Positions 41,823-46,846 of a DNA stretch of 64,000 bases are shown here, in pieces. The notes below the pieces were generated by a model. The model searched no databases. It was given only the letters and a program-made list of their open reading frames with translations, and was not told the origin of the DNA. This stretch comes from a virus. The stretch lies in IMG/VR virus record IMGVR_UViG_3300025150_000003, positions 105,414 to 169,413 of that record; one strand, 5' to 3'. Both the position numbers and the translations under genes were made by a program. Every line of letters begins with the position of its first letter. Within the stretch, counting starts at the first letter, position 1.

Positions 41823-42394
41823 AACTTCAAGTCTATCCCAAGCCTGTTACCATTGCGAGCATGAGGCACCGCACAGCACTTCCCGACAATCATCGGGGTG
41901 GTGATGCCAACCAGGGCCAGCCGAACGTCTGGGTCGTTGCACAGGAACCCATTCTCGCTGACCACGAGGTCCTCGTTGAGGTTGTAGGTGATGAACCCAC
42001 CCGTACCATCCCTCAACCCACCAGGGCCAATGGCCACCGTCTCGAAGATACGGAACAAGAATCGACCACCACCAGCCGTGATGGTGACGGTAGAGGCCCC
42101 TGCACGAGAGCCCTGCTCTGTTCGGAGCTGAACCCCAGTGTAGTTGTTCACCGGACCCGAGAAGGAGCCAGGGTCATAGTCTTCAGAAGGGAAGGCCAAG
42201 AACCCCGTGGCGCTGTTTCCATCGGAGGCTTCCACAACGTACTCATCCACCATGTTCGGTGGTGGGATGTACTTGACCCAGATCCCTCCCTGCCAGCCTT
42301 GGGCACGGAGATTGGGGCCGGCGGTCGCGGGGAACTTATCCCCGTTGATGACCAGAACCACGTCGTCGGTCAGGTTGGTTGTTTGCTCAGCCAC
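41819..42394 (-). CDS. Putative virion protein, possibly capsid decoration/cement (191 aa)
   Basis: Late strand, GAGGTG RBS, beta-rich Gly pattern (LVVSENGFL...IVGKCCAVP...LGIDLKF). The function is a guess. Confidence 0.5.
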   Translation of the reverse strand: MAEQTTNLTDDVVLVINGDKFPATAGPNLRAQGWQGGIWVKYIPPPNMVDEYVVEASDGNSATGFLAFPSEDYDPGSFSGPVNNYTGVQLRTEQGSRAGASTVTITAGGGRFLFRIFETVAIGPGGLRDGTGGFITYNLNEDLVVSENGFLCNDPDVRLALVGITTPMIVGKCCAVPHARNGNRLGIDLKF

Positions 42395-42442
42395 ATCTCA
42401 CCTCTACCCGAGTAGGGCCAAAGGCAGAAAACCGAACTGAGG

Positions 42443-42474
42443 GGGCTCAACTTGGCGTAGCCATCCGTAGTAGG
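42443..42474 (+). promoter_or_regulatory. GGCTCAA-N15-CGTAGTAG motif, copy 2
   Basis: GGGCTCAA cttggcgtagccatc CGTAGTAGG. Confidence 0.8.
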
Positions 42475-42498
42475 TGTGTACAAGGCACCACGGAGAAC

Positions 42499-42753
42499 AT
42501 GATGTTGAAGGACATGATCGAGTTCAAACGAGAGCAGAACGTCCGCATCGACACTGGGGACGTGGTGTTCGATGGCAAGATCCGAGCCGTCATCTCGATG
42601 AACCGGAAGAACACCAGTGACGAGGATCGCCTCTGTCACAACTACATCGTCGTGAACTACAACGACGGTGAGGTGGACACCGTTGCACGTTTCTACCAGC
42701 GCCGGTCTGGACACATCTTCAACTCACGAGGCTGGACGCTGGAAGCCGAGTAG
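42499..42753 (+). CDS. Hypothetical protein (84 aa)
   Basis: GGAGA RBS before ATG 42499, downstream of motif copy 2. Confidence 0.65.
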   Translation: MMLKDMIEFKREQNVRIDTGDVVFDGKIRAVISMNRKNTSDEDRLCHNYIVVNYNDGEVDTVARFYQRRSGHIFNSRGWTLEAE

Positions 42754-42755
42754 TA

Positions 42756-42787
42756 GGGCTCAACTCTGACCAGCCAAGCGTAGTAGG
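42756..42787 (+). promoter_or_regulatory. GGCTCAA-N15-CGTAGTAG motif, copy 3 (leaderless ATG 42791)
   Basis: GGGCTCAA ctctgaccagccaag CGTAGTAGG. Confidence 0.8.
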
Positions 42788-42790
42788 TAC

Positions 42791-43045
42791 ATGAAGATCC
42801 GACTCACATTCAAGACCCCGGACATCCTGCTCGACACCGCCGAGCAGTACCTCGACAACCCCGAATTCCAGCGCTGGCTCCTTCATGAGGAGTGGGCCAA
42901 CCCGGGAGACAAGGATCGCCAGATGCGAGACGCCGCCGAAGATGCTCTGACGGAGAAACTTCAGGGCATCGTCCGTTCAGGTGAGTACCTCACCATCGAA
43001 GTCGATCTGGACACCAAGACCGCCACCGTCGTGAAGGGAGAGTAA
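42791..43045 (+). CDS. Hypothetical phage protein (84 aa), leaderless
   Basis: MKIRLTFKTPD...GEYLTIEVDLDTKTATVV; ATG at the predicted +1. Confidence 0.7.
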   Translation: MKIRLTFKTPDILLDTAEQYLDNPEFQRWLLHEEWANPGDKDRQMRDAAEDALTEKLQGIVRSGEYLTIEVDLDTKTATVVKGE

Positions 43046-43047
43046 CC

Positions 43048-43752
43048 GTGACTGTTCTGACCGCCATCATCGCCATCATCGCCATCCTGGGGATGGTGAT
43101 GACCGTACAACTGTCCCGCAAGTACCGGGTCAATGCCGCTGCGTTCACGGCCCAGATCCAGAAGCTCGTGATGGCCAACAGCATCGACAGGGCCATCAGG
43201 CTCTGCAACGCCGTACAGGAGGCCCCCCTGCCTTCTGCGGTGAAAAGCCTCCTCGTCCGGTCCAACCGCCCCCACGAGCTTCCGCTCTACTACGAGCAGG
43301 AATACGAGGGGCTGACCCAGAAGGCATCCGAGATCAACAACTACAAGGGATGGCATGGCATGGCCGCCTTGGTGGGGAACCTACTTCTCGTGGGCATCCT
43401 CTACTTCGCGACACCTGAGGCTGACAAGGGGGGCACCACGACCTGGCTGGTGGTCTACCTCTCGGCTTCCATCCTCCTCTCAGGCCTACTGACCAGCCTC
43501 CACCACCACCTGAAGGGGTCGCGGGTGTACCTCCACAAGGTGTACATCATGCTGCTGAACCGCCAGAGCTACACCCCCAAGAGCCACGAAGTCCGCCACC
43601 TCACTCGACAGGAGATCGAGGCCTGGCAGGCCTCCATGGATGCCTTCAACGCGGACTACAGCACCCGCAAAGCGTCTGGAGCGCCCGTGGAGAAGGTGGA
43701 AGACGAGTACAAGGCCAACGCTGATGACCGTGGCGTCCTCCCGCCCCTCTGA
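43048..43752 (+). CDS. Degenerate MotA/TolQ/ExbB-family (AglR-like) membrane protein
   Basis: Three hydrophobic segments. The loop YRVNAAAFTAQIQKLVMANSIDRAIRLCNA..APLPSAVKSLL resembles myxobacterial-type TolQ/ExbB/AglR loops (recalled, not searched). Confidence 0.6.
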   Translation: MTVLTAIIAIIAILGMVMTVQLSRKYRVNAAAFTAQIQKLVMANSIDRAIRLCNAVQEAPLPSAVKSLLVRSNRPHELPLYYEQEYEGLTQKASEINNYKGWHGMAALVGNLLLVGILYFATPEADKGGTTTWLVVYLSASILLSGLLTSLHHHLKGSRVYLHKVYIMLLNRQSYTPKSHEVRHLTRQEIEAWQASMDAFNADYSTRKASGAPVEKVEDEYKANADDRGVLPPL

Positions 43753-43763
43753 ACCAGAAAGAA

Positions 43764-44141
43764 ATGCAGACAAAACTTGAAACAGTAGAACAGATGCGTA
43801 CCAGAGCACGGGCAAGCAACCAATCCTGGATGGATTTCGCCGCTTCAATCCATGATGTGGGCTATGCTCTATATCCTCTGGGCAAAGACACACTGACCTG
43901 GCTGGAACAAGCACGTCCCATCAGGGACGAAACCTGCCCACTCGAACTACGAAAGGCCGTACTACATACCGGGCGGCAAACCTCTCTCTTCGGAGAAGAC
44001 ATCTACATCGTGGATGGACGGGCCGACCACGTCATCTGGATGAGACACCAAACCTGCAACACCAGTGCCCTACTTCACCGTGGTGATGGGCTATATTGTG
44101 CCACCTGCCACGCAAGTGTTTCCCAGCAAGAGACCATATAA
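43764..44141 (+). CDS. Hypothetical protein (125 aa) with C-terminal HxxC...CxxC
   Basis: Packed ORF within the cassette. Confidence 0.6.
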   Translation: MQTKLETVEQMRTRARASNQSWMDFAASIHDVGYALYPLGKDTLTWLEQARPIRDETCPLELRKAVLHTGRQTSLFGEDIYIVDGRADHVIWMRHQTCNTSALLHRGDGLYCATCHASVSQQETI

Positions 44142-44172
44142 TCATCTGATTCTCAATCACAGGAGACCACGG

Positions 44173-44487
44173 ATGCCTGTCACACTCCATTCACCCGAGC
44201 AGAAGCCTCCGGTTTACGAGATTGAGGTCGTGGGGGCAGCGGAACTGCTTTCCAGAGCCCAGATCGAAGACCTGAGTCGGAGACTCGGAGAGTTCCTGGG
44301 GATTCCCGATGCCACCCTGCTCTCCCCACAAGCCCGAGCCTATCTTGATGCCCTTATGGATGTCGTCCACCAAGAAGCCGAAGAAGTCGCCTGGCTCGGC
44401 AAACGACGATTCGACTCTGATGCCGTCGCCTACCACGCCAGGAGACTCATCAAACACCTGGACGCTGAAACCAAGAAAAGAGAGTAG
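44173..44487 (+). CDS. Hypothetical protein (104 aa)
   Basis: AGGAGA RBS before ATG 44173. Confidence 0.6.
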   Translation: MPVTLHSPEQKPPVYEIEVVGAAELLSRAQIEDLSRRLGEFLGIPDATLLSPQARAYLDALMDVVHQEAEEVAWLGKRRFDSDAVAYHARRLIKHLDAETKKRE

Positions 44488-44657
44488 TCAATCGGTGTAC
44501 CACATCATACGTGGATTCATCAGAATCCGTTCAGTGCTACCTGCCTGTTCAGTGTTTTGTGACCCCCGCCATTTCATTGGTCAGAGGCAGGTTTTGACCC
44601 TAGTGCGGAGAGAGCCCACCATCTGGCCCGACTACTGAACAACTTTGGTAGCGCCAA

Positions 44658-44689
44658 AGGCTCAACTTCCTGAGCCCACCCGTAGTAGA
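44658..44689 (+). promoter_or_regulatory. GGCTCAA-N15-CGTAGTAG motif, copy 4
   Basis: AGGCTCAA cttcctgagcccacc CGTAGTAGA. Confidence 0.8.
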
Positions 44690-44765
44690 GTCAGGTGAGT
44701 CCTGGTGAACTGGTAGCCAGGGGCAAGGTTCCGCCAACAACGTGATGAACAAGCAGGAGAGTAAG

Positions 44766-45029
44766 ATGGACAAACTAGCCCAAATCATTGCAGAGCACCC
44801 CACCAAGCGATGGAGGGCTCATACAGGGTTCGTCACCCCGGTGATGTTGCGTGCGGTCTTTGAAGAAGCCAAGACGCGGGACATCATCACGGTGGCAGAG
44901 GTGCAGGAGATGCCCGACTTCATTGGCACCCTGTTCCTCGCACGCACCACCTGCAAATGGCTGGAGCGGATGGGATTGCTCCGTGAGAAGAGCGCTTGTA
45001 GTGGCAGGTTCAGCCTCGTGAAAGACTAG
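44766..45029 (+). CDS. Small winged-helix-like protein (87 aa)
   Basis: AGGAGA RBS; ITVAEV...ARTTCKWLERMGLLREK...GRFSL is wHTH-like. Confidence 0.5.
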   Translation: MDKLAQIIAEHPTKRWRAHTGFVTPVMLRAVFEEAKTRDIITVAEVQEMPDFIGTLFLARTTCKWLERMGLLREKSACSGRFSLVKD

Positions 45030-45433: not shown

Positions 45434-46846
45434 CTAGGCAGAAACCCGTACCAGCGTGTCCCCCAACCACAACCCACCCGGCTTGACTGCCAACACGCCC
45501 AGCTCGACCAGACAGCCCTGCAAGTAGGACACGTCCGTGTAGGGCTCGTCCTCCCGCACTTCAAGGTAGATGAGGTCCGGTGCAGACTGGATCATCTCCC
45601 GCTTGATGCGGTCCCGTTCGATGAGCTTGTCCCACTCAGCACGGTAAGACTCGTCCACCATCCAGGGGTTGGGGAAGGTGTAGTGGAACATCCCCTGAAA
45701 CTCGACGACCAACCCAACGTCAGGGAAGTAGCCGTCAAACCGGAAGCGATGCCCCGTTGGTGGGTTGGTGAACCGCCAGCTCTTCCATTCCTCCTCAAAA
45801 TGCCGCCCGTCTAAAGCCTCCGAAACGGCATCCAAGCAACGCCTCTGAGAGACGTTCCCATGTGCCCAGATCAACCCTAGACGACGACATTCCTTCTTGA
45901 TGGTGATGTTGCTGTACCCCAACCCAGACATCGCCGCCGCAATGCTCACCTTCCCATTCTTCAGCTTGAACTTTTCCAGTTCCTCCACCGTGAGGACTAC
46001 CCGTCGGTCATCGGCCGCCTGCTCGATGTACTTGGGCGTTGCTCTCAGCCCCCACAACTCCAAGTAGGTCTTGAGCGTAGGCCACGCAACACCCAAACCT
46101 GGCATTGCCCTCCGGTGATCTACCGTCCCATCAGGCTCCAAGAAAGGCGTGAAATCCTCTTGGGTCAAACCAAGGGTCTTGGCTTCTCGGATTTTCTCTC
46201 CGAAATCGGGCGGACGAATCAGCCCCTGCAAAGCACTCTTGTCCCTCACAGGACAGTCCAAGGCGACCACCAACGCCTCAGGGTGACGCTCCCGATACCC
46301 TGAGTGCTCATGCTGTAGGTGACTGGTCAGGTTCTCCGCACGGTAGCCACACTCCAGGCAACGGATGAAGTCCTTCGACTCCTTCTTGCCCTTCCACCGT
46401 GCAACCTCCAGGAGGTTCGCCGTGGAAGCCTTGCATTCCGGGCAAGGAACGACCGAGGAGAGCTTGTGCACCTCGTGCTCCCTCCCACAAGAGGGGCACA
46501 CGATGCTCTTGGTGCCATCGTAAGCATCGGAGGCCACCCGACCCTGTTGGATGGCCTCCCGTCGCTTCTCCGTGACCTTAGAGGGGCGAATGAGGGCATC
46601 CTGGTGCTTGACCCGATAGGCGTCCGCTGTGATGCCGTGGGATGCCTTCAGGTGACGAGCAAGAGTTGCCGCTCGATGCCCGCACTCAAGGCAACAGACG
46701 TAATCCTCACCCTCAACTTTCCCATTCCAACGCTGGTCCTCTTGCCACTCCAAATACTCCGGGTGGGAAGCTGCCTGGTGGCGGAAGTGAGATGCCAACC
46801 CCCGAAGGTTGGCTACCTTGATAGAACAGATGGGGCACAAAACCAC
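45434..46846 (-). CDS. Zn-finger array fused to a Vsr/DUF559-like PD-(D/E)xK endonuclease (probable homing endonuclease)
   Basis: One C2H2 finger, two Ros/MucR-like CLECG...HL...H fingers and a C4 ribbon. C-terminal RFDGYFPDVGLVVEFQGMFHY...RDRIK nuclease motif. Confidence 0.75.
   Translation of the reverse strand: MVLCPICSIKVANLRGLASHFRHQAASHPEYLEWQEDQRWNGKVEGEDYVCCLECGHRAATLARHLKASHGITADAYRVKHQDALIRPSKVTEKRREAIQQGRVASDAYDGTKSIVCPSCGREHEVHKLSSVVPCPECKASTANLLEVARWKGKKESKDFIRCLECGYRAENLTSHLQHEHSGYRERHPEALVVALDCPVRDKSALQGLIRPPDFGEKIREAKTLGLTQEDFTPFLEPDGTVDHRRAMPGLGVAWPTLKTYLELWGLRATPKYIEQAADDRRVVLTVEELEKFKLKNGKVSIAAAMSGLGYSNITIKKECRRLGLIWAHGNVSQRRCLDAVSEALDGRHFEEEWKSWRFTNPPTGHRFRFDGYFPDVGLVVEFQGMFHYTFPNPWMVDESYRAEWDKLIERDRIKREMIQSAPDLIYLEVREDEPYTDVSYLQGCLVELGVLAVKPGGLWLGDTLVRVSA

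Follow-up and report, generated by a model that had tools for sequence, protein, structure and literature searches.

A pore-dead phage relative of AglR/ExbB-type stator subunits as a putative mimic of the cytoplasmic face of a bacterial motor

Introduction

What use might a phage have for a relative of a proton-motor subunit that has lost the residues of its pore? This question is raised by a gene on the plus strand of a 64,000-nucleotide (nt) stretch of DNA, here called the window, which corresponds to positions 105,414 to 169,413 of the IMG/VR virus record IMGVR_UViG_3300025150_000003. The gene is an open frame with a GTG start (43048..43752) and encodes a 234-amino acid (aa) AglR/ExbB-like protein, P0001; a protein that is 98% identical to it, P0002, starts at the same position. 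A sequence-only reading of the window had described the product as a degenerate stator subunit of the MotA/TolQ/ExbB superfamily and had proposed that it acts as a decoy for proton-driven motors of the host. The family to which P0001 belongs is previously undescribed, and in the literature searched no phage-encoded ExbB/TolQ/AglR-like protein, nor any virus-encoded derivative of a 5:2 motor, has been described.

Descent from an AglR-type stator subunit

The layout of a first transmembrane segment (TM1), a cytoplasmic loop and two further segments (TM2 and TM3) that had been proposed for P0001 is borne out both by hydropathy, which places the segments at about residues 1-19, 104-122 and 133-151, and by an AlphaFold2 (AF2) model with a mean predicted local distance difference test (pLDDT) score of 93.4. 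The helices of this model span residues 2-26, 30-42, 46-54, 60-70, 75-121, 124-172, 187-209 and 217-224; three TM helices are present, with a large cytoplasmic domain separating TM1 from TM2, as are the long alpha5-6 and alpha7 helices. P0001 is predicted to be an inner-membrane protein with an ExbB-like three-TM helical architecture.

In a search of 5.8 billion sequences, ExbB proteins bearing the PF01618 domain matched P0001 with expectation (E) values of 5e-11 to 5e-9. These single-sequence matches were confined to residues ~25-75, and over the 50 residues from 25 to 74 P0001 is 64% identical to the ExbB protein P0005, which upholds the likeness of the loop to Myxococcota-type TolQ/ExbB/AglR proteins that the sequence-only reading had pointed out. 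P0001 itself has no Pfam match, PF01618 included, at E≤10 and nothing meaningful in Pfam, NCBIfam or PHROGs, and 0 of 38 members of its family match PF01618 at E≤1. The absence of a Pfam match is explained by the position of the domain, because in the host proteins from which the phage gene appears to derive (the donors) PF01618 covers the TM2-TM3 core (residues 73-193), on the C-terminal side of the shared N-terminal cytoplasmic loop (N-loop). When an alignment of 38 phage sequences was compared as a profile with an alignment of 30 ExbB sequences of the donor subfamily, hhalign gave a probability of 99.9 and an E value of 8.5e-32 over 171 columns. The alignment is colinear, with residues 6-178 of the phage profile set against 16-208 of the 219 of ExbB, and includes the helix that follows TM3. 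Membership of the PF01618 family thus stands as colinear profile homology and falls as a direct match. These comparisons indicate that P0001 descends over its whole length from an AglR-type stator subunit of Myxococcota Agl-Glt-like envelope motors. It is a member of the superfamily by evolution that lacks the functional marks of membership, namely a PF01618 match, the pore residues and a linked plug gene.

The phage family

A profile search of 1.84 billion representative proteins returned 380 matches. Full-length relatives, 225-250 aa long, make up about 40 clusters (at 50% identity); most of them have the TM1/TM2/TM3 layout, and the GLLGT and TTxxGL motifs are absent from them. Three modules, all of them predicted to be cytoplasmic, are conserved in the 38-sequence alignment and maintained by purifying selection: the N-loop, the segment comprising the post-TM3 helix and extension, and the C-terminal tail. 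The three TM segments are hydrophobic throughout the family, but their sequence is not conserved. No curated model for the family was found in Pfam, NCBIfam, PHROGs or PADLOC with P0001 as query (nor in PADLOC with the members P0013 and P0016), P0001 had no match among INPHARED phages by DNA or protein, and a pattern search and tblastn against IMG/VR gave no match. Because the C-terminal extension is common to the members and was found on no other architecture, a single ancient capture of a host gene is suggested.

Loss of the channel motifs, together with the failure of any curated family model to match, could be taken to mean that P0001 is a functionless, decaying remnant of a captured host gene or resembles the stators by chance. 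Chance is excluded by the profile E value of 8.5e-32. Decay is effectively refuted by family-wide conservation, there being intact frames of constant length in about 40 clusters with three conserved modules, and it also sits badly with a fold predicted with very high confidence and a gene with a good ribosome-binding site and translational coupling to the open reading frame (ORF) upstream; we find this explanation scarcely credible. The word 'degenerate' was accordingly misleading for a conserved family of this size that has its own C-terminal module and a high-confidence fold.

The donor subfamily and its loci

The N-loop signature (AF.AQIQKL.MAN.IDRAI.LCNA) was found at 301 loci in species genomes. 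Among the 80 of these loci that were listed, nearly all are labelled Myxococcota, Bradymonadales or 'Deltaproteobacteria', and a few Bdellovibrionales. The donor profile was matched at E≤1e-40 in 86 of 101 sampled Myxococcota genomes, and in the three genomes examined the donor is the one top-scoring copy among 6-9 ExbB/TolQ paralogues.

At one donor locus (L037) the gene order is TPR, TPR, ExbB, ExbD, ExbD, TonB_C. The best NCBIfam match of the TonB_C protein is GltG, with the AgmX/PglI C-terminal domain above its cut-off, and that of the TPR protein is GltE. At 12 further host loci the ORF downstream of the ExbB gene was GltG-like in every case (at about 6000-7650 of L012, L016, L017, L030, L033, L035, L040, L043, L051, L059, L062 and L079), and the upstream ORF was GltE-like, again in 12 of 12. 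A 'core complex' of aglR-aglQ-aglS together with gltD/E/G/C has been described (Luciano et al. 2011, PMC3169522). The layout of the donor loci (GltE-like, ExbB, two ExbD, GltG-like) matches this 'core complex', and the label 'AglR-like' that had been attached to P0001 therefore holds.

The GltG-like proteins downstream of the donor ExbB are ~440-500 aa long and match the GltG model only from ~208-219 (ranges from L037 and L012). They seem to be without the N-terminal FHA domain of Myxococcus xanthus GltG and to have a central FHA region, a TM helix and a C-terminal domain. It may be a Glt-like paralogue or 'core complex' that is encoded at these loci, and not the gliding motor itself.

Loss of the pore

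The sequence-only reading had held the channel motifs to be eroded, and comparison with the donors confirms this across the family. The Thr of the GLLG-T motif in donor TM2 is present in 30 of 30 hosts, and the corresponding column of the phage family holds V, G, A, F, I or L. In donor TM3 the Thr and Gly are each present in 30 of 30 hosts and the Pro in 29 of 30; assorted hydrophobic residues stand in their place in the 38 phage members. In P0001 the counterpart of the donor GLLGT helix is TM2 (residues 104-122; 43357..43413) and the counterpart of the NTTAFGL..IP helix is TM3 (residues 131-152; 43438..43503), the motif being lost from each, and no conserved polar or charged residue is left in TM2 or TM3 of the family. 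On this alignment, every invariant proton-pore residue has been lost. The alpha1 helix, the conserved TM1 and the TM3 proline are missing from the family as well; TM1 of P0001 (residues 2-24; 43051..43119), as placed by hydropathy, is hydrophobic, is not conserved in sequence and is preceded by no periplasmic alpha1 stub.

As had been noted from the sequence, no ExbD/TolR partner is adjacent. Neither a PF02472 (ExbD/TolR) nor a PF01618 gene was found in the 169-kb record at E≤1 (MotB was not searched by name), and no ExbD-like gene lies beside any family member examined, including those in the window and in the contigs L082-L084, loci which also have no conserved neighbour in common. Linkage to AglQ/S-type, GltG-like and GltD/E-like genes is present for the donors and absent for the phage gene and the family members examined.

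It might be proposed that P0001 is nevertheless an ion-conducting stator or a viroporin, working alone or with an ExbD- or TonB-like partner supplied by the host or by the two thirds of the phage genome that are missing from the record. Such a role would be in keeping with the preservation of the ExbB-like fold and three-TM topology in nearly all members, and with a record that is only ~32% complete. We consider it very improbable given that TM2 and TM3 have no conserved polar or charged residue and within-family identities of 13-15%, that PF01618 is matched by none of the 38 members, and that none of the family loci examined has an ExbD-like gene. From its sequence P0001 is inferred to be unable to work as a motor.

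Retention of the N-loop

Mean pairwise identities were calculated by region from a merged alignment of the 38 phage and 30 donor sequences and are given here in the order within the phage family, within hosts, and phage against host. The N-loop stands at 47%, 86% and 53%, and is the most conserved region of the host AglR-type proteins. The values are 15%, 50% and 11% for TM1, 23%, 66% and 15% for the alpha5 linker, 15%, 69% and 18% for TM2, and 13%, 55% and 11% for TM3, with the post-TM3 helix at 35%, 72% and 28%; the phage-specific tail has 51% identity within the family. In P0001 the N-loop occupies residues 28-75 (43129..43272) and is the segment that resembles the host proteins, as the identity to ExbB P0005 given above attests; its consensus in the family is IN..AF.aQIQKLvMANNIDRAIKLCNA.P...K.LL..ANRP, which agrees with that of the donors at most positions, and its conserved residues include Q36, Q38, K39, N44, D47, R48 and N54. 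The post-TM3 cytoplasmic helix (residues 160-173; 43525..43566; consensus L..lRNLLY.R) was aligned by hhalign with the KLeNLL.sR helix of the donors, and four of its consensus positions are common to the phage family and the donors in the merged alignment.

Against certain host genes the N-loop core has a nucleotide identity of 89-91% across 75-84 nt, which prompted the idea of a recent recombination event. This idea was rejected, since the third-position identity at conserved codons between this phage and hosts (54%) is at the host-host background (51-52%), and family members with a G+C content at third positions (GC3) of 0.48 keep the protein match only, with 56-59% amino-acid identity to hosts and 39-45% third-position identity. 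Because third positions are saturated across phages of very different codon usage, these comparisons indicate that the N-loop match is held by purifying selection on the protein and not by recent exchange.

The C-terminal extension and tail

Beyond the post-TM3 helix, P0001 carries a phage-specific cytoplasmic extension without a counterpart in the donors (residues 174-225; 43567..43722), with the family consensus YVPP...P..mT.EE...WR.SM..FE followed by a charged linker. The protein ends in a C-terminal tail (43723..43749) that finishes G-V-L-P-P-L-COOH, an ending found in most of the 40 full-length members; residues L231 and P232 are at least 90% conserved in the 38-sequence alignment. The conservation of this tail suggests that it is probably a short linear docking motif. 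In the full-length model the extension has pLDDT averages of 77-96 per 10-residue block, and when folded alone it reached a pLDDT of 87. A profile search with the extension found matches only in the same protein architecture.

Residues 169-212 (43552-43683) marginally resemble the DnaB-binding N-terminal helix of DnaC (PDB 6kza), with an E value of 0.038 against 177,635 sequences, a resemblance that may be due to chance. The GYF domain of GltJ has been shown to bind a proline-rich sequence of AglZ (PMC11135422); to connect this domain with the YVPP and LPPL motifs of the family, given that no ligand motif has been defined, is speculation.

These features would also be accounted for if the three-TM body had been re-used simply as a scaffold, anchoring a function of the phage-specific tail such as holding a factor of the phage or of the host at the inner membrane; in that case the N-loop would be kept for folding or for contact with the tail and the motor would not be the target. 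The extension and the GVLPPL end are specific to the family and as conserved as the N-loop, the C-terminal module is restricted to this architecture, and the extension is confidently placed in the model. Against this, the other helices of the fold have drifted to 11-23% identity whereas the N-loop has been held at the host consensus, its 53% identity to hosts being at least as high as the 47% found within the family. Constraints of folding alone would be insufficient to hold the N-loop to the host version, and we regard this explanation as rather unlikely.

Possible mechanism of action

In Escherichia coli TolQ and ExbB, the subunit contacts, cavity and pore are formed through alpha5, alpha6 and alpha7, and a ring of Thr faces the Asp of TolR/ExbD (PMC12215075). 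TonB and TolA bind at the periphery via alpha1 and a network that extends from the Ser/Trp of TM1 to the Pro of TM3, and the solvent-exposed parts of TolQ/ExbB are normally the more variable (PMC12215075). In the phage family the segment that has been kept is the alpha2-extension/alpha3/alpha4, and what has been discarded comprises the pore, the helices of the subunit interface and, at the level of the TM segments, the site for the transducer.

The mechanism put forward in the sequence-only reading was that of a dominant-negative subunit. P0001 would join host AglR/ExbB-type subunits in mixed pentamers that are unable to hold or gate the ExbD-like plug. The full-length colinear homology, the ExbB-like fold, a post-TM3 helix partly common to the donor and a dead pore are all features to be expected of such a subunit. 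The pattern of conservation argues against it, however: the helices that make the subunit contacts (alpha5-7; PMC12215075) are the least conserved, with 11-23% identity both within the family and against hosts, and it is the N-loop that has been kept. Host stators that had already formed would, moreover, be unaffected. Co-assembly therefore appears distinctly unlikely. A complex prediction with a host AglR-type subunit and P0001, each with its alignment, scored 0.00 against a mark of 0.32, a result that counts neither for nor against binding. The associated suggestion of superinfection exclusion via Ton or Tol is not indicated, as the donor belongs neither with TolQ nor with the classical ExbB proteins.

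A decoy role is still the most reasonable reading of the sequence. Because the helices that have drifted are those of the subunit contacts in TolQ/ExbB and the N-loop that has been kept is predicted to face outward, we favour, at a little short of an even chance, the view that P0001 is a membrane-anchored, pore-dead mimic of the outer cytoplasmic face of the stator that titrates a partner of the motor. P0001 made during infection would compete with host AglR-type stators for the docking of this partner on the cytoplasmic face; the GTPase MglA and, within the GltG-like transducer, the central FHA domain are candidates. Such competition would uncouple a host Agl-Glt-type machine that powers gliding or some related function of the envelope. 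The conserved GVLPPL tail would probably make a second, phage-specific contact, recruiting or blocking a second factor.

Several points weigh against this titration of a motor partner. The outward-facing position of the N-loop is assumed by analogy with the structures of TolQ/ExbB from E. coli, and the contact of the GltG FHA domain with AglR is a published prediction only. In NCBIfam the donor neighbours match GltG and GltE with scores that fall short of the equivalog cut-offs, and the donor, which is not tied by name to M. xanthus AglR, may belong to a paralogous Glt-like 'core complex' and not to the gliding motor proper. CheckV estimates the record to be ~32% complete, so that a partner gene elsewhere in the phage is possible, and the members on contigs of 39-42% G+C (GC) content imply hosts that are perhaps not typical Myxococcota. 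The binding of a motor partner by P0001, its localisation and its phenotype are likewise proposed by inference from the sequence.

A broader proposal, which we regard as doubtful, is that huge phages of Myxococcota-like hosts share a dedicated effector family, a pore-dead viral copy of the gliding-motor stator that would display the cytoplasmic docking face at the inner membrane and by means of it capture a GltG-type transducer or MglA and so switch off or redirect the Agl-Glt focal-adhesion machinery, with the GVLPPL tail delivering the captured complex to a second factor.

The gene cassette and a repeated motif

The gene is preceded by a Shine-Dalgarno sequence, AAGGGAGAG, which was read directly from the plus strand at 43034..43042 and ends ~7 nt 5' of the GTG. 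Upstream lies an ORF of 84 aa (42791..43045, plus strand) that heads the cassette and encodes a soluble protein of no known family, without a Pfam match; its stop is 3 nt 5' of the GTG of P0001, and the P0001 gene is translationally coupled to it. Downstream in the same cassette and on the same strand is an ORF of 125 aa (43764..44141) whose soluble product has a Cys-rich C-terminus, belongs to no known family and is not ExbD-like.

Two plus-strand copies of the octamer GTAGTAGG were read directly upstream of the 84-aa ORF (42750-42757 and 42780-42787). They are 30 nt apart, and the ATG at 42791 almost abuts the second. The octamer occurs 6 times in the window (39458, 42467, 42750, 42780, 61357 on the minus strand, and 61423) against 0.45 expected, a number reached in 0 of 100 shuffles, and the copies are always close to the starts of small non-structural genes. 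No sigma-70-like site was found within 42300-44800. From its sequence and placement GTAGTAGG is a candidate phage-specific promoter. Since P0001 follows the 84-aa ORF, which is itself 3' of the two copies, its gene comes second in a small cassette that stands behind a dispersed motif specific to the phage, in line with the sequence-only reading.

Two antisense ORFs over the N-loop region (42961-43356 and 42990-43265, both on the minus strand) look conserved in related loci. They were rejected as a second gene, their apparent conservation being the shadow of the strongly conserved segment on the sense strand. Further downstream, between the cassette and a gene for a 1785-aa structural protein, a minus-strand gene (45434-46846) encodes a 470-aa protein with a ROS/MucR-type zinc-finger match at residues 46-82 (E 5.8e-13) and weaker matches to zinc-ribbon families along its first ~175 residues.

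Phage carriage and host

The window lies within a 169-kb virus record, and other members of the family were found on ORFan-rich contigs (one of 201 kb, one of 134 kb) with genes of the kind usual in large phages, for HNH, anti-Pycsar Apyc1, RtcB, RNA ligase, Pyr_excise, NADAR, Cpn10, a ClpB-like ATPase and the ribosomal proteins L9 and L27. The contigs that carry the family look like huge phages. The ribosomal L27 gene adjoins that of the member P0015 (L165:404-688), and L9 is on one of L101, L089 or L085; ribosomal protein and ClpB-like genes near members are typical of huge phages but would fit cellular DNA as well.

P0013 lies on a phage-like contig of 25.7 kb (L082:5217-14697) amid two Band_7/SPFH genes, an ABC permease and ATPase pair, an anti-Pycsar Apyc1 gene and a gene whose 581-aa product carries an OmpA peptidoglycan-binding domain at its C-terminus. 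These genes form a cluster directed at the envelope, here carried by a phage.

The GC of the contigs ranges from 39% to 67%, so that the family is shared among phages that infect different hosts. A Myxococcota-like host, as suggested in the sequence-only reading, is plausible for this phage with its GC of 60%, but the gene alone does not fix the host, given an ancient capture and members at 39-42% GC.

Relation to known systems and significance

The closest known relatives are AglR of the M. xanthus Agl-Glt motor and related 'core complex' stators (PMC3169522, PMC11761067), to which P0001 is alike in its full-length colinear homology, three-TM layout, near-identical N-loop consensus and related post-TM3 helix. 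It differs in lacking the pore Thr, Gly and Pro, the alpha1 stub, the conserved TM1 and linked AglQ/S-like or GltG-like genes, and in having an extra tail of ~60 aa that ends GVLPPL; it is also phage-carried, and the donors with which it was compared are not matched by name to M. xanthus AglR. With ExbB and TolQ of the Ton and Tol 5:2 motors (PF01618; PDB 5SV0, 6TYI, 8ODT, 9DDP) P0001 shares topology and helix order, but it has no match to PF01618 and is without the Thr ring facing the ExbD/TolR Asp, the alpha6 and alpha7 prolines and the TM1 Ser/Trp network for TonB/TolA.

Overexpression of TolQ in E. coli reportedly gives a division phenotype like that of an FtsN null (PMC3831626). This is a precedent for the disturbance of a cell by a stator subunit out of stoichiometry, as in the mechanism proposed for P0001; there, however, an intact host protein was artificially overexpressed, whereas P0001 would be a dedicated, pore-dead, virus-encoded derivative.

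A further comparison can be made within phage-host conflict itself. ZorA of the Zorya anti-phage system is a membrane protein of the MotA/ExbB superfamily whose cytoplasmic tail is long; it serves the defence of the host, forms a working channel and has a partner, ZorB. P0001 is likewise a membrane protein of the superfamily with an added cytoplasmic tail, but it is phage-encoded and pore-dead, and PADLOC models, ZorA included, gave no match at E≤1 for P0001, P0013 or P0016.

In bacterial motility and import, in the integrity of the envelope and in defence against phages, a central part is played by 5:2 proton motors (Mot, Ton, Tol, Agl, Zor). Should the broader proposal of a shared effector family be correct, this would be the first known case of a viral protein that uses molecular mimicry against a 5:2 motor of bacterial gliding or of the envelope, and its interest would lie in this new kind of viral target. 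The family can be regarded as a natural separation-of-function mutant, in which the channel and the subunit interface have been dropped and one cytoplasmic surface has been kept, and its conservation may thus mark that surface as a functionally critical docking site of AglR-type stators. It also offers a handle by which huge uncultured phages may be linked to hosts with Agl-Glt-type machines, and a candidate tool in the form of a genetically encoded inhibitor of gliding.

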